Positions 2,851-11,009 of a stretch of DNA of 14,174 nt are shown here, one piece after another. This DNA is from a bacterium. Lineage in GTDB: Bacteria > Babelota > Babeliae > Babelales > RVW-14. Each line of letters opens with the position of its first letter. Position 1 is the first letter of the stretch. The translations under genes were made by a program, and so were the position numbers. Under the pieces are notes generated by a model. It had not been told where the DNA came from. It made no database searches and saw only the letters and a list, made by a program, of their open reading frames with translations. Location of the stretch: assembly GCA_043822925.1 (NCBI GenBank), contig JBDRBF010000033.1:1-14174 (forward strand). The letters run 5' to 3'.

Positions 2851-4200
2851 CTATACCAACGCAAGTATCGCCTGCCTCATCTCTAAGTTTTTGTCGCTCA
2901 TAATTTTAGCCACAGCATATAACGGATACGAGTGAATATTATTATGCACCGAATAATTTTGCGCCGAAAAACGTATGCCATACGGAGATTTTGGATGAGA
3001 TTCAAGAAATACATGCATACTCTTAAGCGTACTTCCCAATCCAGCTTTTACTTCAACCGGAACAACAACTGAATTAAGTTGAAGCAAATAATCAATCTCA
3101 GCCTGCCCAATAGATGCATCTTTGTGCCAATAATAAATATAGTTTTTTATATTCATATCAGAATAAGCCAGTATTTCTTGCCCGATAAAAGCTTCAACCA
3201 AAGCACCTTTATTAACAAATTCTTGTTGTGGATTTAAAAACCACTCAGCAATATCAAGATTAAGAACAGATTGAGCTAGTCCAGTATCTAAAAAGATTAC
3301 TTTATAATCTTGTGGGTCCATCTGGGCCCCAAGTGGAACCCCCTGGCCCGCAGAATGATAAACTTTGTGGGCAATACCAGCTGTAACTAACAAATCAAGC
3401 GCTGGTGCAAGTTCGCGTTTGCGATAATCACCTTCAACCAAACTATATTTAAATTTTCTTCCAAGTTGCAAGGGTATATGGCCAAATAATAATGCAACAT
3501 ACTTTACCTGCAACGTACGCGCATATTTATCAAAATCTTGCCGATACGTATTTAATAAAGAACTATGAACCCGAGCACAACCAAGTGGATTTTTTTTCTC
3601 AACCCACCGTTGTACAGATTGTGGCATACCGCCAAGCGCCAGATATTCGCCGAGCAGTCCCAATAATAGATTATGAATCGCAGAACTCATTTCTTCTTCT
3701 GGTTTGTGGTTAATAATCTCGTCGATAGCAAGATAATTCCCAGTAGCTACCAAGTATTCGATAAACGATAACGGATGCATGTACAAAGATTGCACACGCC
3801 CAACCGGTATACCAACCTGCTGAATGGCAAAGTCCAGAAGTGAGCCAGCCGCAATAACATGTAACTCTGGAAGCATCTCATAAAAATATCGCAGGGCAAT
3901 AATTGCCTGTGGAACAATTTGAATTTCATCCAAAAATAAAAGGGTTTTGCCGGGAATTATTGGCTTTTTTACGATAAGCGAAAGATCGCTACAGATTCTT
4001 TCTGGATCAAGATCTTTTTCAAAAACCGCGCGAGCTTTTGGGAGCAATTCAAGATTAATTTCTACAAAGTTCTGATACATCGCACCAAGTCTTCTGATCG
4101 AATATGTTTTGCCAACTTGCCGTGCCCCACGCACCAGAAGGGGTTTCCGGTATTCATCGAGCTTCCATTCTGATAAGAAATGGTCAATAATACGCTTCAT
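2851..4200 (-). CDS. AAA_14 family ATPase with C-terminal DUF4143 (PD-(D/E)XK-like) domain, intact copy
   Basis: 449 aa. Walker A GARQVGKT, Walker B LLFLDEIQ, AAGSLL, YLALGGMP, GALVEAFIGQE, and C-terminal AEIDYLL...PVEVKAG. Confidence 0.93.
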   Translation of the reverse strand: MKRIIDHFLSEWKLDEYRKPLLVRGARQVGKTYSIRRLGAMYQNFVEINLELLPKARAVFEKDLDPERICSDLSLIVKKPIIPGKTLLFLDEIQIVPQAIIALRYFYEMLPELHVIAAGSLLDFAIQQVGIPVGRVQSLYMHPLSFIEYLVATGNYLAIDEIINHKPEEEMSSAIHNLLLGLLGEYLALGGMPQSVQRWVEKKNPLGCARVHSSLLNTYRQDFDKYARTLQVKYVALLFGHIPLQLGRKFKYSLVEGDYRKRELAPALDLLVTAGIAHKVYHSAGQGVPLGAQMDPQDYKVIFLDTGLAQSVLNLDIAEWFLNPQQEFVNKGALVEAFIGQEILAYSDMNIKNYIYYWHKDASIGQAEIDYLLQLNSVVVPVEVKAGLGSTLKSMHVFLESHPKSPYGIRFSAQNYSVHNNIHSYPLYAVAKIMSDKNLEMRQAILALV

Positions 4201-4313: not shown

Positions 4314-5216
4314 CTATGGCATCCCCACCGGCTCAAGCCCAATACTTTTTGCATACGCAACCTGCTGCGCAATTTCATCAAATAGGTTAAGCTTTTTCAC
4401 ACTCAAACTGTTTTCACTCAATATTTTTTTATTTTTTGAATCAACAACTGACTCAAAATCCATCTGGGCAAGCTTAAGCCCTATATTTGCAGCCTGCTTA
4501 ACCTGTTGAACAACTACCTCATCTAAATCAGTATCATATATATATTTTCGCACAAAGGGGCCTAAATAATTCAATCCTTTCTGATCACCCCTCTCTTTGC
4601 TCACTTGTCCATTATCTGCATGTACAACTTGGGCCTGAATAGCTTGACTCTCCTGAGCCGCACCTTGGTTAACCCCCTGACATGACCGTTGTTGCTCTTC
4701 TTGGACAACCTGAATACATGTATCTTGACTTGATTGATGATCCAACTTCCCACCCAATATTCCAGGATCTTTATCCTGTGGCAACTTGACGCCCGCAAGC
4801 TCTTGCAGCCCAGGGGCAGCACACGGCGGCGACACTTTATTTTTTCTTTTTTTAGGCAAAAAATTCAACAAAAACAAAACTATAACAACAGCAATTACTA
4901 AAACAATTAATGCTGTAAGCACCCCTGCCCAACCTTCCCGCACAAAAACATTTACTGTTTCTTTTTTTTCAGCCTCTTTTTTTTCAGGATACTCTTGGCT
5001 ATCATTAACCATTGCGACGATTTCATCGGTCGAATACCCATGCAAAAGAAGATCATAAATCTTTTTTACAAAAGTCTTCAAATCACCTTTAATCCCATTT
5101 TCAGCACCAAAAAAAGGCTCAACTTTAGTACTTTGCGCAAATAAAACAGCACCATTACTCAAAACAACAAAACACATAATTAAAAGAAAAAAATATCGTC
5201 GATTCATAAGCATCAT
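4314..5216 (-). CDS. Hypothetical membrane protein (signal peptide, one TM helix, Gln-rich linker)
   Basis: ATG 5216 overlaps the upstream TGA (ATGA), giving about 300 aa. N-terminal RRYFFLLIMCFVVLSNGAVLFA; TM GWAGVLTALIVLVIAVVIVLFLLNFL followed by PKKRKNKV. Confidence 0.82.
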   Translation of the reverse strand: MMLMNRRYFFLLIMCFVVLSNGAVLFAQSTKVEPFFGAENGIKGDLKTFVKKIYDLLLHGYSTDEIVAMVNDSQEYPEKKEAEKKETVNVFVREGWAGVLTALIVLVIAVVIVLFLLNFLPKKRKNKVSPPCAAPGLQELAGVKLPQDKDPGILGGKLDHQSSQDTCIQVVQEEQQRSCQGVNQGAAQESQAIQAQVVHADNGQVSKERGDQKGLNYLGPFVRKYIYDTDLDEVVVQQVKQAANIGLKLAQMDFESVVDSKNKKILSENSLSVKKLNLFDEIAQQVAYAKSIGLEPVGMP

Positions 5217-6772
5217 TTTAAAGCTCCGACCCATTCATCACGTTCTTTTTTCCATTGCAATATTTGTTCTAAACTATGTTTTGCCTGATCAATCGCTGCG
5301 AGCGCTATATCATCAGTAAGCTGTTTATTTTCTTGTCGTCGAGCACAAGCAACCATCTCCTGAGCAATAAACTTAATAGCCCGTGGCGCCAGCCCCTTCA
5401 AACTCTCGGCGTATCTTGCCAATTTTTCTACAACCTCCGGACAAATACCCACAAGCGCTTCTTTATTTTCTTGTGCAAAGTTCTCAAGATATCTAACAAG
5501 AATTCTTTCTCGTTCAGGAGCATCCGGCAGCGTAAATTCTATACTTACCCCAACACGATCAATAATTGCATCATCAAGTTTGAATGGATGATTTGTGGCA
5601 AAAATAAACATCAAATTTTTCTGCGCTTTATCCGGAATAAGCGCCAAAAAAGTATTAATAAAATCTTGAACAGATTTTGACGTTGTTGGAAGCTTTCTGT
5701 TTGCAAACAAAGATTCAGCCTCATCAATAAAAACAAGTAACCCTTTATCTGTTTTTTTTGCCCAATTCAAAAGTTTACGTAATTCATTGTTGGCTATTTT
5801 TAAATCTGTGATCTTTGCGAATTCTGAACCAGACGTTAATGCATAATCAAGCCCTGAAGCATACGCTAAAGCTTTGGCAAAAGCAGTCTTGCCCGTTCCA
5901 GAATCCCCATAAAAAAGAAGATTAGGTAACGCTTCATCATAAATTCTTGCCGTTTGCACACGAGATAAAACATCAGAAAGCTGCTTAAATAAAGAAGGCC
6001 CAAAGATTAAATCTTTAATATCGATATTTTGTTGAGCCTTAAAATAGCCAAAAAAACCTGTTCTAGACGTTTCACTTACAACGTATGGCTGCATAAAATA
6101 ATTTGTAAGCACAGGCATACCATATTTAATACTATAAATACACAAAGCAACTGCTATCGTTGCCAATACTATTTTTATTATGGGCCTTGAATCTCCAATA
6201 ATCTCCCGAATGTTTTTCCATTTTACTTTTTCAGCCTCAATAGGTGCTTGAGCCCGGATTCGTTCTGCTTGCTCATAAATTCCACGCCGTTGCTTTTCGC
6301 CTATTTTTGCCTGCCCTATTTGGATCTTATCTTCCAGTCCAAGTTTTCGTTCTCTTTTTGCTGTATCTGCTATTCGTTCTTCAGCTTTTGCAACTTCTTC
6401 TGCAAGAGTTCCACTTAACCGTTTATACTCTTGCTCTAAATTCGCTGTAGCTGCCTGAGTTCGCTCTATCCCTGCCACCGCTTCTTTTGCCGCAACGGAT
6501 GCCCGGCCCACAACGGCCAAAACCTCAGTAGCATTTTCAAAAGCCTTAAGGGCCGTACCATTAGAGCTATGCACAAGGCCCAATGCCTCATTTGCTCTGC
6601 AAACAGCATTATCTGCCTTTACAAAAGCATATTCTGAATGATCTTTGAGATGTTTTAATGCCTCATCAACTATCTGTTTAATTTCACTATTTGATGGCTT
6701 TATTGCCAGGAGCCCTGAAGCACTCAAAATACTCACAAAAAAAACCAAATTAAACGTTATTTTTTTATACAT
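5213..6772 (-). CDS. ATAD3-like AAA+ ATPase (signal peptide, coiled coil, TM, AAA domain)
   Basis: 519 aa, AAGGGGG RBS. Walker A LFYGDSGTGKT, Walker B GLLVFIDEAE, ATNHP, AIIDR. ATAD3-type motifs PYVVSETSR, SGLDYALTSG, KLLNWA and FTLPDAPERERIL. Confidence 0.88.
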   Translation of the reverse strand: MYKKITFNLVFFVSILSASGLLAIKPSNSEIKQIVDEALKHLKDHSEYAFVKADNAVCRANEALGLVHSSNGTALKAFENATEVLAVVGRASVAAKEAVAGIERTQAATANLEQEYKRLSGTLAEEVAKAEERIADTAKRERKLGLEDKIQIGQAKIGEKQRRGIYEQAERIRAQAPIEAEKVKWKNIREIIGDSRPIIKIVLATIAVALCIYSIKYGMPVLTNYFMQPYVVSETSRTGFFGYFKAQQNIDIKDLIFGPSLFKQLSDVLSRVQTARIYDEALPNLLFYGDSGTGKTAFAKALAYASGLDYALTSGSEFAKITDLKIANNELRKLLNWAKKTDKGLLVFIDEAESLFANRKLPTTSKSVQDFINTFLALIPDKAQKNLMFIFATNHPFKLDDAIIDRVGVSIEFTLPDAPERERILVRYLENFAQENKEALVGICPEVVEKLARYAESLKGLAPRAIKFIAQEMVACARRQENKQLTDDIALAAIDQAKHSLEQILQWKKERDEWVGALK

Positions 6773-7378: not shown

Positions 7379-7750
7379 ATGACGAAAAAAATACAAGTTC
7401 TTGAAACTAAACATTATTTATCTCAATTGTCAGCTTTTATACACAAAGGGATAAATAAAGAAGAATTCCGAGAAGGGATTAAAGAAACTATCTCCGAAAA
7501 TCCACTTATTGGTGACGTCATACCCAGAACAGGCGGCGTGCGCAAAGTGCGTTACGCTATGCCTGGAAAAGGTAAGCGTGGTGAATTTAGAATAATTTAT
7601 TATTTTTATGATGAAATCAATCCTGTTTTTTTGATAACAATATATCCAAAATCTAAAGCTGAAAATATAACGCCTAAAGAAGAAAAGCTCTTCGCTGAGG
7701 CTGTAAGACAGTTAAAAAGTAGTTTTAAAAACACAAGGTACAATATATGA
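7379..7750 (+). CDS. higB: Type II TA toxin, RelE/ParE superfamily, HigB2-like
   Basis: NPLIGDVIPRTGGVRKVR...GKGKRGEFRIIYYF...VFLITIYPKS..ENIT; toxin-first order and ATGA overlap with the antitoxin. Confidence 0.9.
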   Translation: MTKKIQVLETKHYLSQLSAFIHKGINKEEFREGIKETISENPLIGDVIPRTGGVRKVRYAMPGKGKRGEFRIIYYFYDEINPVFLITIYPKSKAENITPKEEKLFAEAVRQLKSSFKNTRYNI

Positions 7751-8169
7751 GAAAATTTGTAAAAGACGTTCTTACTGGGTTTGAAGACGCTATAGCTTAT
7801 GCACAGGGAGATAAAAGCAGAGGGGTACTGACAACAATCACCATTCCAGATATTGATGTAAAATCTATTCGTAAAAAAACAGGCCTAACACAAGAAGCAT
7901 TTTCTCGCCTATTTGCAATCAAAACTCGCACGTTGCAAGATTGGGAACAAAATAGAAGAAAACCTGAGGCATCTGCACGTATATTTTTACTTTTAATTGA
8001 TCGACATCCTTCGACGATAAGAAAAACACTAAAATCATTCGGTTATTCTTTAGAAACGAGAAAGCCATCAAAAGCTAAAACCAAGACATTACGAAAGCCA
8101 TCTAAAAAATTTATCGACCCAATCACACCAAAAAACAAGCCGATTAAGATAGCCTTGAAAAAGAAGTAA
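7747..8169 (+). CDS. higA: Type II TA antitoxin, HigA2-like XRE HTH with basic C-terminal extension
   Basis: DIDVKSIRKKTGLTQEAFSRLFAIKTRTLQDWEQNRRKPEASARIFLLLIDRHP; translationally coupled to the toxin. Confidence 0.9.
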   Translation: MRKFVKDVLTGFEDAIAYAQGDKSRGVLTTITIPDIDVKSIRKKTGLTQEAFSRLFAIKTRTLQDWEQNRRKPEASARIFLLLIDRHPSTIRKTLKSFGYSLETRKPSKAKTKTLRKPSKKFIDPITPKNKPIKIALKKK

Positions 8170-8235: not shown

Positions 8236-8814
8236 TTAGTTAATTTTTATCTTACCAAATTGTTCGATTAATTCTTGCATCTCGATTTGTGCCTGAAAAA
8301 TATTTTTAATACCAATATTTGTTGCGTATCCTGAAGCCAGCTTGAGTTGCGTGAGCGTGCAAACAATTATCGATTCAAACAAATATTTAAAAACTTCAAA
8401 ATGCCCTTTCTTTGCAGCTTTAAACGCTGTTTCAGGCGCATAGCCACCACCTTGGCAAGAACGAAATTTTTCTCTAATTTCTTGATTATTAAGAAGACAT
8501 TTAACAATATCCAAATAGCCCTTTACAGCAGCTGTCCGAACAGCTTTAACAGCCACACCGCCTGACTTAAAAGTAATAAATTCACCTCTAATTTTGGCAT
8601 CACTAAAAAGCGCTTTAAATTTTTCTAGATTACCCGTTACTATAGCATCATTAAGATCTGAACTATCTAAAACAGACAGATTCTTATCATCCCAAGAGCC
8701 AACAATTTCCCCGCATAAATGAGTAACGCTACTAAGCAACACAAATGCCAGAAGCACACACAAATTTATTTTTCTATAATTGTTCAAAGCAAGACATCTT
8801 GCAACAATTTCCAT
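8236..8814 (-). CDS. Ankyrin-like repeat protein with signal peptide
   Basis: 192 aa, GGGGGGA RBS. AIVTGNLEKFKALF, AAVKGYLDIVKCLL and AAKKGHFEVFKYLF at 38-aa spacing. Confidence 0.85.
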   Translation of the reverse strand: MEIVARCLALNNYRKINLCVLLAFVLLSSVTHLCGEIVGSWDDKNLSVLDSSDLNDAIVTGNLEKFKALFSDAKIRGEFITFKSGGVAVKAVRTAAVKGYLDIVKCLLNNQEIREKFRSCQGGGYAPETAFKAAKKGHFEVFKYLFESIIVCTLTQLKLASGYATNIGIKNIFQAQIEMQELIEQFGKIKIN

Positions 8815-9635: not shown

Positions 9636-11009
9636 ATGAAGAGAATTATAGATGCTTATCTTACTCAATGGAAAACTGATTTAAACCGAAAACCCCTTTT
9701 ACTCAGGGGCGCACGCCAAGTTGGTAAAACCCATGCCGTACGAGAACTTGGTAAAACCTTTGACCATTTTATAGAGATCAACTTTGAACGAAATCAACGC
9801 GCACTTGCAATCTTTGATAACGATAAAAGCCTAGACCCAAAACGCATACTACAAGACATTTTTGCCCTTCTAAATAATGAACAAGATGCGAAAAGTGAAA
9901 AAATTATTCCAGGATGAACATTACTTTTCTTTGATGAAATTCAAATCTCGCCCAGAGCAATTACTGCGCTGCGTTATTTTCATGAAGAAAAGCCAGAACT
10001 CCATGTCATAGCAGCAGGCTCTTTATTGGATTTTGCAATCGAACAAATTGGCATCCCCGTCGGCAGAATTCGCTCACTCTATATGTACCCATTATCTTTT
10101 ATCGAGTTTTTGGTTGCATTGGGTAAAAAAAAGATCGTTGAGCAATTATTAGAAAAACGAGAAATATCTAACTTCGTCTATAGTGCAGGGGGACATGCAG
10201 ATTTACTCGATATGGTTGGCAAGTATTTGGCCGTTGGCGGCATGCCTGAATCTGTCAATCAATGGATAAAAACAGGAAATATAAACGAATGCCTCATGGT
10301 ACACCAGGATATTATTGATACTTATCAACAAGATTTTGGCAAATACGCAAAAGCACCACAAATTGACCATGTTGCACGCATTTTCATGAACATCCCTCAT
10401 CAACTTGGTGGTAAATTTAAGTATACAGTTATTGAGGGCGATTACCGGAAACGCGAACTGGCGCCAGCACTTGATTTACTCAGAACAGCCGGCATTGTCC
10501 ACAAAATTTTTCATACAGCAGCCCAAGGTATCCCACTGGGAGCAGAAGTAGACCTAGAATTTTATAAAACAATATTAATGGATATTGCCATAAGCCAAAA
10601 AGTTTTGGGATTAGAAACTGGATCCTGGATCTTAGAACCTTTACAAAATTTTACAAATAAAGGTGCAGTGGTTGAAGCTTTTGTTGGCCAAGAAATTTTA
10701 GCGTATGCCGATCCGCGTCAAAAAACACAACTTTATTACTGGCAACGTATGGCTAAAAACAGCACCGCTGAAGTTGATTATCTGCTACAAGATCAAGAAA
10801 CCATAATTCCTATCGAAGTAAAAAGTGGACATAGCACAACGCTCAGAAGCCTAAACATGTTTTTAGAACTGCATGCCCGATCATCATACGGAGTACGCTT
10901 TTCTGCGCAAAACTATTCGGTACATGAACAAATCCATTCATACCCCCTGTACGCCGTATCTCAGGTTGCATTGCAAAATAAAGAGATTGTACTTAAAGCG
11001 CTTATCTAA
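9636..11009 (+). pseudogene. AAA_14+DUF4143 ATPase paralog interrupted by one in-frame TGA (9915-9917)
   Basis: ORFs 9636..9917 and 10026..11009 share a frame. The gap translates IIPG*TLLFFDEIQISPRAITALRYFHEEKPELHVIAAGSLL, matching IIPGKTLLFLDEIQ... of the intact paralog. Confidence 0.85.

Follow-up and report, generated by a model that had tools for sequence, protein, structure and literature searches.

The stretch of DNA analysed here, called the window throughout, is a contig of 14,174 nucleotides (C33; JBDRBF010000033.1) from the assembly of a tiny parasitic bacterium (GCA_043822925.1), which comprises 1.52 Mb in 86 contigs, is 92% complete and has a G+C content of 37%. Its main subject is a minus-strand gene at positions 5213..6772 that encodes an AAA ATPase resembling ATAD3, an essential ATPase of the mitochondrial inner membrane in eukaryotes. 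A first-pass annotation of the window had read the gene at these coordinates, which proved right, as a bacterial homolog of ATAD3 with a secretion signal, and every motif string that it quoted is found in the translation. The gene is an uninterrupted open reading frame (ORF) of 519 amino acids starting from ATG, and the plus-strand frame of the same interval contains many stops. On the basis of its ORF, its PF00004 match and its homologs, the encoded protein, P0001, is assigned to subfamily A of a bacterial family of ATAD3-like AAA ATPases.

One protein search returned 158 homologs of P0001 at E<=1e-3 and a search against 1.84 billion cluster representatives returned 136 proteins at E<=1e-30, numbers that mark the gene as far beyond a chance ORF. 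The closest protein relatives are named Candidatus Dependentiae, Babeliales or TM6, and a search of sequencing runs placed carriers in DNA runs of groundwater and biofilm metagenomes, with no RNA run listed. Three ATAD3-like paralogs are encoded in the genome, on contigs C39, C8 and C33, the last being P0001, a divergent paralog within the bacterial family. In Pfam, P0001 matched PF00004 only (residues 285-414, E 1.2e-21). Scans of the window for tRNAs and Rfam families found nothing, and the 12 promoter-like sites around the ATPase gene represent no excess over shuffled sequences (9.5 +/- 3.7).

Membrane architecture and catalytic motifs of P0001

P0001 begins with MYKK followed by a hydrophobic segment at residues 5-23 (positions 6704..6760, minus strand), which hydropathy and the AlphaFold2 model indicate as a putative Sec signal peptide or signal anchor. 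Next comes an all-helical, Ala/Glu-rich domain at residues 28-193 (6194..6691, minus strand), which is delimited by composition and by DSSP assignment of the model and is predicted to be periplasmic, and then a single transmembrane helix at residues 197-219 (6116..6184, minus strand), called from hydropathy and the corresponding model helix. Kyte-Doolittle hydropathy is 1.98 for residues 5-23 and 2.24 for residues 197-215, and residues 27-195 contain 16.6% Ala and 13.0% Glu. In the AlphaFold2 model, built with 61 relatives and having a mean predicted local distance difference test (pLDDT) score of 85.5, an N-terminal helix (residues 2-20) at low pLDDT precedes the all-helical region, which is followed by one long helix at residues 195-227 and then by a confident AAA fold with a helical lid.

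Under standard insertion rules, a protein with a signal or anchor segment and, behind it, a hydrophobic stop-transfer helix becomes a bitopic inner-membrane protein, and the cytoplasm is the sole bacterial compartment holding ATP. Because P0001 has a Sec-type N-terminus and then a stop-transfer helix 170 residues further on, directly before the ATPase, it is predicted to place its helical domain in the periplasm, to span the membrane once and to keep its AAA domain in the cytoplasm, and would therefore be retained in the inner membrane of the bacterium itself. In eukaryotic ATAD3, the ATPase is reported to lie in the matrix and the transmembrane helix in the inner membrane, with the N-terminal part directed towards the outer membrane (PMC13249166). 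The predicted orientation of P0001 equals this reported one, if the matrix is equated with the bacterial cytoplasm and the periplasm with the intermembrane space.

These elements were also counted across the family, excluding fragments, rows without the module start and rows with multiple AAA domains, and scoring an N-terminal segment where Kyte-Doolittle hydropathy reached >=1.6 over 12 residues within the first 45. Such a segment occurs in 94/110 proteins of subfamily A and 77/84 of subfamily B, and in 4/127 eukaryotic ATAD3 proteins. A transmembrane helix at a place like that in P0001 is found in 109/110, 73/84 and 125/127, respectively. In P0001 this helix stands just before the juxtamembrane motif PYVVSETSR and ahead of the AAA core, so that the ATAD3-type arrangement is present.

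The juxtamembrane motif (residues 229-237, positions 6062..6088, on the minus strand like all motifs that follow) is, by pairwise alignment, the counterpart of PSLVRDTSR in Xenopus ATAD3A. The AAA core then carries a Walker A motif, GDSGTGKT (residues 289-296, 5885..5908), SGLDYALTSG at residues 306-315, KLLNWAKKTDKGLLVFIDEA at residues 333-352, a Walker B motif, VFIDEAE (residues 347-353, 5714..5734), the stretch from sensor 1 through the arginine finger, ATNHPFKLDDAIIDR (residues 392-406, 5555..5599), and LPDAPERERIL at residues 415-425. A motif of the lid domain, GLAPRAIKF (5369..5395), contains R464, a candidate sensor 2 by alignment. Conservation was assessed in an alignment of 23 rows covering both bacterial subfamilies and five eukaryotes, in which the invariant positions are P229, the Walker A glycines (G289, G292 and G294), K295, T296, W337-A338, F348, D350, E351, N394, D400, A402, R406, P416 and R464. 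Walker A, Walker B, sensor 1 and the arginine finger of P0001 are thus intact (K295, D350, E351, N394 and R406). The Walker A sequence, remarked on earlier as unusual, is indeed present and still matches GxxxxGK[ST], with residues 290-291 variable across the subfamily.

Relationship to eukaryotic ATAD3 and distribution

In a direct BLASTP comparison, residues 186-509 of P0001 aligned with residues 231-567 of Xenopus ATAD3A (P0465) at 27% identity (E 8e-35, 125 bits), and motifs of the same kind are seen in both proteins. The similarity begins in the transmembrane helix and the juxtamembrane motif, outside the AAA core. In the reverse direction, a tblastn search of the genome with Xenopus ATAD3A retrieved the three paralogs on C39 (36%, 2e-54), C8 (37%, 4e-49) and C33 (28%, 3e-31), and only then the FtsH of the same genome, at 3e-9; the order was the same with Hondaea ATAD3 as the query. 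The C8 paralog, used as a query, retrieved named ATAD3 proteins of Perkinsus, Cystoisospora, Hondaea, Babesia, Theileria, plants (Tarenaya) and a nematode (Strongyloides) at 35-41% identity over ~60% of its length (E 1e-51 to 1e-62). Among 80 matches scanned from the tail of the P0001 representative search (150 listed), 17 carry PF12037, the ATAD3_N domain, and among the 10 of these that were looked up, P0242 comes from a millipede and P0177 from the protist Fabomonas. In addition, the language-model Atlas placed eukaryotic ATAD3_N clusters at 0.95-0.97. The homology to ATAD3 claimed in the first-pass annotation, as opposed to a generic FtsH or Cdc48 relationship, therefore holds from the transmembrane helix to the C-terminal lid in the pairwise comparison, in the reverse search and in the trees described below, where the AAA module groups with ATAD3.

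Two trees were built. The quick tree contained 113 rows, made up of fetched single-module proteins thinned at 55% identity and four ORFs of an Oligoflexales metagenome-assembled genome (MAG), with an outgroup of nine domains from the FtsH of the window's genome and four tandem-AAA proteins. Here the Shimodaira-Hasegawa-like approximate likelihood ratio test (SH-aLRT) gave 99 for the family and 96 for a clade of all 15 named eukaryotic rows together with 6 metagenomic rows, and the bacteria formed a clade (SH-aLRT 84) sister to the eukaryotes. The careful tree admitted only rows of known provenance; 107 candidates were reduced to 71 by thinning Dependentiae loci at 60% identity, two duplicate loci were dropped, and the resulting 71 rows x 283 columns were analysed under LG+C20+F+G4 by the posterior mean site frequency (PMSF) method. 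Its 5 outgroup rows have long branches and are few in kind, and Discoba, Amoebozoa and Metamonada lie outside the set.

In the careful tree, the ATAD3-like family is separated from the FtsH and tandem-AAA outgroups with support of 100/99, the FtsH of the window's genome standing among the outgroup. The 22 eukaryotic rows form one clade (97/98), recovered in 98% of 200 bootstrap trees, inside which plants, alveolates, most stramenopiles and animals are each grouped apart. P0001 falls outside this clade, in a bacterial clade of 6 rows (100/99) with a stem of 1.02 changes per column, and the two other paralogs of the genome fall in a different clade from it. The backbone that joins the eukaryotic clade to six or more deep bacterial clades did not resolve, and a single bacterial clade was not rejected by the approximately unbiased (AU) test (log-likelihood difference, delta lnL, 0.00; p-AU 0.50). 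As eukaryotic ATAD3 is a separate clade and P0001 sits on a long derived bacterial branch, the tree argues that the P0001 gene is not a recent capture from a host. Two origins had been offered in the first-pass annotation, and it is the bacterial sister group informative on the origin of ATAD3 that is supported; the host-derived gene repurposed as an exported effector is not supported.

In order to define the distribution of the family, the profile of alignment A1 was run over whole genomes of four groups, Alphaproteobacteria not being among them. In the phylum of the window (Dependentiae), 144/261 genomes match at E<=1e-30, 27 of the 144 having only a weak best match (1e-31 to 1e-36). As weak matches overlap the scores of other AAA proteins, such as a 331-amino-acid ORF at 1e-33 and an actinobacterial FtsH at 7e-31, the matches in 117/261 genomes (E<=5.5e-43) are those counted as firm. 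In the window's own family, 33/34 genomes match at E<=2e-83. Carrier genomes hold up to 5 matches, with tandem triplets in G134 and G143. At E<=1e-40, matches were found in 2/131 genomes of the phylum of an Oligoflexales-titled MAG and in 25/400 evenly sampled genomes (one genome unscored) of the phylum of a Parachlamydiales-titled MAG, and none in the Actinomycetota sample (0/301), which indicates that this threshold does not catch FtsH. Homologs widespread in free-living bacteria and unconnected to an intracellular lifestyle, named in advance as evidence that would count against the first-pass reading, did not appear in the groups sampled.

Several of these matches deserve separate description. 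The Oligoflexales-titled MAG (G263; 6.3 Mb) carries four ATAD3-like genes (L097-L100) in two clades, on contigs of 34-37% G+C, and a second genome of its phylum (G283, L102) carries one. The match of the Parachlamydiales MAG itself lies on a 3.6-kb contig of 32% G+C whose protein is the nearest row to P0001 (64% identity); this is probably a mis-binned Dependentiae contig. Five other loci of that phylum, L107-L111 (G579, G525, G483, G599 and G554), form a separate ATAD3-like clade of five rows (100/100), and their proteins have GPGGTGKT, a transmembrane helix and a T/G-R-P-x-L juxtamembrane motif. Their N-terminal regions, in ORFs taken from the upstream stop, are Gly-rich rather than helical and show no obvious signal segment by eye, and some of these ORFs contain several extra hydrophobic stretches.

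Other records require care in reading. Several records titled 'uncultured Pseudomonadota' or 'bacterium' are genomes already in the set for the window's phylum, and these labels are therefore not independent taxa. Two paralogs, P0332 and P0333, lie together on a 728-kb contig of a MAG that its submitter named Epsilonproteobacteria/Campylobacterota; both fall inside a Dependentiae subfamily-B clade of the quick tree, and the genome is probably mislabelled. A single narrow DNA pattern scanned against 185,579 species genomes missed the chlamydial type, and the result is not a distribution survey. Finally, 31 fetched proteins have more than one AAA module match (among them P0134, P0137, P0139 and P0142); these multi-AAA proteins include giants of up to 2350 amino acids with 3-6 tandem classical AAA domains, and their summed scores rank high.

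A putative envelope ATPase and alternative explanations

Taken together, we consider it probable, at roughly 60%, that P0001 is a bitopic AAA+ ATPase of the inner membrane, that its bacterial family stands as sister or stem group to the mitochondrial ATAD3 of eukaryotes, and that the protein acts as an organiser or remodeller of the envelope. In this model, the N-terminal segment would take the Ala/Glu-rich helical domain across the inner membrane through Sec, and the second helix would halt transfer, leaving the ATPase in the cytoplasm where imported ATP would be available. The protein would most likely assemble into a hexameric ring against the membrane's inner face, and cycles of ATP could be transmitted through six transmembrane helices to periplasmic helical arms reaching the wall or the outer membrane. 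Such an ATPase would organise or remodel the bacterium's own envelope, probably with a co-encoded partner, rather than work as a threading unfoldase. Classic substrate threading is argued against, since the pore-loop aromatic of FtsH (EVFVG in the FtsH of the window's genome) has no conserved counterpart in the ATAD3-like family in alignments read by eye.

Eukaryotic ATAD3 proteins (ATAD3A/B of vertebrates, 'bor' of insects, ATAD-3 of C. elegans, and the plant and apicomplexan members) combine PF12037 with PF00004. Like them, P0001 has a helical region ahead of the transmembrane helix, this helix directly before a P-x-[LV]-[VI]-x-[ED]-[TS]-S motif, an AAA core with a DWA motif, FIDEA, a single arginine in a [DS]-R context and an invariant lid Arg, and an ATPase predicted on the cytoplasmic or matrix side. 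Unlike them, the bacterial proteins have a hydrophobic signal or anchor segment at the N-terminus, and P0001 has GDSGTGKT as its Walker A and a conserved downstream partner gene beside its own. FtsH, AFG3L2 and YME1 also hold a classical-clade AAA module at the inner membrane, their ATPase facing the cytoplasm or the matrix, but they have two transmembrane helices around a small periplasmic domain and a conserved aromatic pore loop, whereas P0001 has no such loop, lacks the M41 peptidase and has one transmembrane helix after a long helical ectodomain. Cdc48/p97/VCP, which provides the top sequence matches among solved structures, is soluble and, unlike P0001, has two AAA domains and an N domain.

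Several points weigh against the proposed model. In an hhalign comparison with 18 eukaryotic ATAD3 proteins, the N-terminal domain of subfamily A reached a probability of 0.3%, the same as its reversed control, and that of subfamily B reached 11%. With no detectable homology of the helical domain to ATAD3_N, the architecture common to P0001 and ATAD3 in this N-terminal part may be convergent. The 'signal peptide' of P0001 is a call from hydropathy and charge only, and the K/R versus D/E counts around the transmembrane helix (5/4 before, 2/1 after) are uninformative for orientation. The localisation and the ATPase activity of P0001 are predictions, the pore-loop statement comes from reading alignments by eye, and the envelope function is drawn by analogy with ATAD3, whose own mechanism is unsettled. 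In addition, restriction to bacteria living in or on eukaryotic cells, together with paralog expansion, would also be expected of host-interaction genes.

The profile PF12037 (ATAD3_N / DUF3523) itself had no match in P0001 at E<=0.01. In the window's genome, only the C8 paralog gave a match, at 23.1 bits (cut-off 25) over profile positions 220-265, the last 46 of the profile, and matches in control genomes numbered 0/14; the subfamily relatives P0102, P0103 and P0105 carry a precomputed PF12037 match. The statement in the first-pass annotation that P0001 and ATAD3A have the same architecture is consequently true in part, as the transmembrane helix, juxtamembrane region, AAA domain and lid are homologous, but the N-terminal helical domain has no detectable homology to ATAD3_N.

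P0001 apparently belongs to an undescribed bacterial branch of a family thought to be restricted to eukaryotes. A full-text literature search found no paper discussing a bacterial relative of ATAD3, and automated annotation at the Joint Genome Institute (JGI) already labels some bacterial members 'ATAD3A/B'. The ATAD3 literature, as the first-pass annotation had stated, describes the family as eukaryotic (PMC3790746, PMC13249166): in the sections consulted, one account places it in animals, plants and protists and does not list yeast (PMC3790746), and a 2026 paper, whose main text nowhere uses the word 'bacteria', chose AFG3-like outgroups, giving as its reason that no other AAA+ subclass was detectably similar to the ATAD3 domain (PMC13249166). 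A bacterial sister family that is diverse and shares the membrane orientation would make the origin of ATAD3 directly testable, would give structural and mechanistic studies of a gene family involved in human disease small bacterial orthologs and a candidate partner to work with, and would add a conserved, unstudied envelope component to the biology of Dependentiae.

As to that origin, we tentatively suggest that eukaryotic ATAD3 may descend from a bacterial envelope-spanning AAA family that survives in Dependentiae, environmental chlamydiae and a few Oligoflexales, with the ancestral topology kept and with the bacterial proteins serving the diderm envelope as ATAD3 serves the contacts between inner and outer mitochondrial membranes. 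To our knowledge, ATAD3 is absent from fungi, and we know of no alphaproteobacterial ancestor. If this descent were true, the mitochondrion would have received ATAD3 early on as a gift from a bacterial lineage that was not its own ancestor, and a bacterial two-gene module would allow the mechanism of ATAD3 to be studied.

A rather doubtful, although still serious, alternative is an ancient transfer in the other direction, in which an intracellular bacterium took up one early eukaryotic ATAD3 gene, which then acquired a signal sequence, diversified fast and reached Dependentiae, chlamydiae and a few Oligoflexales; in that case, the bacterial family would be silent on the source of ATAD3. The result of the AU test (p-AU 0.50), which leaves bacterial monophyly standing, is compatible with such a transfer, as are the quick tree of 113 rows with its single bacterial clade sister to the eukaryotes (SH-aLRT 84), the scattered occurrence in three unrelated eukaryote-associated phyla and the 0/301 Actinomycetota genomes with a match. 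However, no bacteria are nested within the eukaryotes, whose monophyly is supported at 97/98 and in 98% of 200 bootstraps, there are more and deeper clades on the bacterial than on the eukaryotic side, and the subgrouping of the eukaryotes is that expected from vertical descent since an early eukaryote. Because the root rests on long outgroup branches, the direction of transfer is unreadable either way.

Less likely still is that P0001 is an exported effector, which would leave the bacterium, insert into host mitochondrial membranes, mimic or co-assemble with host ATAD3 and reorganise mitochondria around the parasite. Dependentiae and chlamydial lineages are intracellular associates of protists. 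The resemblance to a protein of mitochondrial membrane contacts is genuine, the family occurs mainly in Dependentiae and in a minority of genomes sampled from the phylum of the Parachlamydiales MAG, the paralog expansion resembles that of effector families, and the five chlamydial-type ORFs without an obvious N-terminal signal by eye could be delivered differently. As the first-pass annotation had noted in proposing a host-derived effector that remodels mitochondria, Chromulinavorax is reported to reorganise host mitochondria. It is described as wrapping a host mitochondrion around itself, and signal peptides are reported on 44% of its coding sequences (PMC6561590).

The evidence from the window's genome does not support this proposal. 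With no marker of a type III or type IV secretion system (T3SS or T4SS) found, in that the 92% complete genome gave 0 matches each to FHIPEP (PF00771) and VirB4 (PF03135), a type VI system not having been searched for, the effector reading is unsupported, and the retention topology and the separate eukaryotic clade also stand against it. Three secretin (PF00263) matches are present in the genome, but secretin-based export handles soluble periplasmic proteins, and a Sec signal with a strongly hydrophobic helix after it is what typically marks a bitopic protein of the inner membrane; the AAA domain, needing ATP, would remain on the cytoplasmic side. A long-branch derived paralog that is 27% identical to ATAD3A would in addition be poor mimicry. 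The words AAA and ATPase do not occur in the consulted text of the Chromulinavorax paper, which proposes a mitofilin-like protein instead (PMC6561590). That protein of Chromulinavorax destructans is likewise a Dependentiae protein resembling an organiser of the mitochondrial inner membrane, but it belongs to another family and is reported as exclusive to C. destructans (PMC6561590), whereas the ATAD3-like family is widespread in the phylum.

Last, it is very improbable that P0001 is a generic membrane AAA ATPase, a protease-less FtsH-like or Cdc48-like protein with convergent ATAD3-like motifs, as PF00004 being its sole Pfam pass and the solved structures nearest to it being Cdc48/p97 by sequence (E 1e-21 to 1e-22) and FtsHi, proteasome Rpt, p97 and FtsH by fold are outweighed by 44 and 34 bits per Cdc48 domain against 125 bits to ATAD3A, by a likeness to ATAD3 that starts outside the AAA core, by the absence of any Pfam match to peptidase M41 or to a second AAA domain, and by the reverse genome search and the tree (100/99), both of which contradict it. 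Because no ATAD3 chain occurs among the PDB matches of P0001 by sequence or by fold, the rankings of solved structures cannot test ATAD3 kinship. The FtsH of the window's genome matches P0001 at E 1.2e-8, and the NCBIfam FtsH models score 39 and 31 bits on P0001 against cut-offs of 600 and 1008.

The candidate downstream partner gene and other genes of the window

The gene downstream of the ATPase gene (positions 4314..5234, minus strand; identified from ORFs and co-conservation) overlaps it by 22 nucleotides and encodes a 306-amino-acid protein with an N-terminal hydrophobic segment, one transmembrane helix, a low-complexity middle and a C-terminal YAKSIGLEP motif, for which no Pfam family was matched. 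By tblastn, 11/65 related loci have a homolog of this gene immediately after the ATPase gene and in the same orientation. All 11 are among the 22 subfamily-A loci, and of the remaining 11 in that subfamily, some are cut off by a contig edge. The 306-amino-acid protein is thus a co-conserved candidate partner of the ATPase; the predicted complex of the two scored 0.00 in two runs (controls not folded). At locus L038, a partner-type gene seemingly occurs twice in tandem after the ATPase gene (667-882 and 1200-2234). The subfamily-A protein P0085 (764 amino acids) has a 250-amino-acid C-terminal extension with an extra transmembrane helix and an end resembling the partner C-terminus, and may be a fusion of the ATPase and partner genes; the BLASTP match between the 306-amino-acid protein and this extension is collinear and not significant (E 0.26).

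Just upstream of the ATPase gene, on the opposite (plus) strand, Pfam identifies a toxin-antitoxin pair in which a RelE-family toxin gene (7379-7750) overlaps a helix-turn-helix (HTH; MqsA-like) antitoxin gene (7747-8169). An intact AAA_14/DUF4143 ATPase gene lies at 2851-4200 on the minus strand, and a broken paralog of it at 9636-9917 and 10026-11009 on the plus strand, whose two ORFs match residues 1-84 (49% identity) and 122-433 (54%) with the middle missing. The plus-strand gene at 310-1392 encodes a 360-amino-acid protein with an N-terminal hydrophobic segment and no Pfam family, the body of which is very basic, rich in His, Arg, Gly and Trp, and repetitive, with recurring W-N-x-L / K-W motifs. 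Further genes of the window encode a NUDIX hydrolase, a polysaccharide deacetylase and an S9 peptidase according to Pfam. Finally, two ankyrin-repeat proteins, each with an N-terminal hydrophobic segment, are encoded on the minus strand at 2089-2775 and 8236-8814, and ankyrin-repeat proteins are discussed as host-interaction candidates in Dependentiae (PMC6561590).

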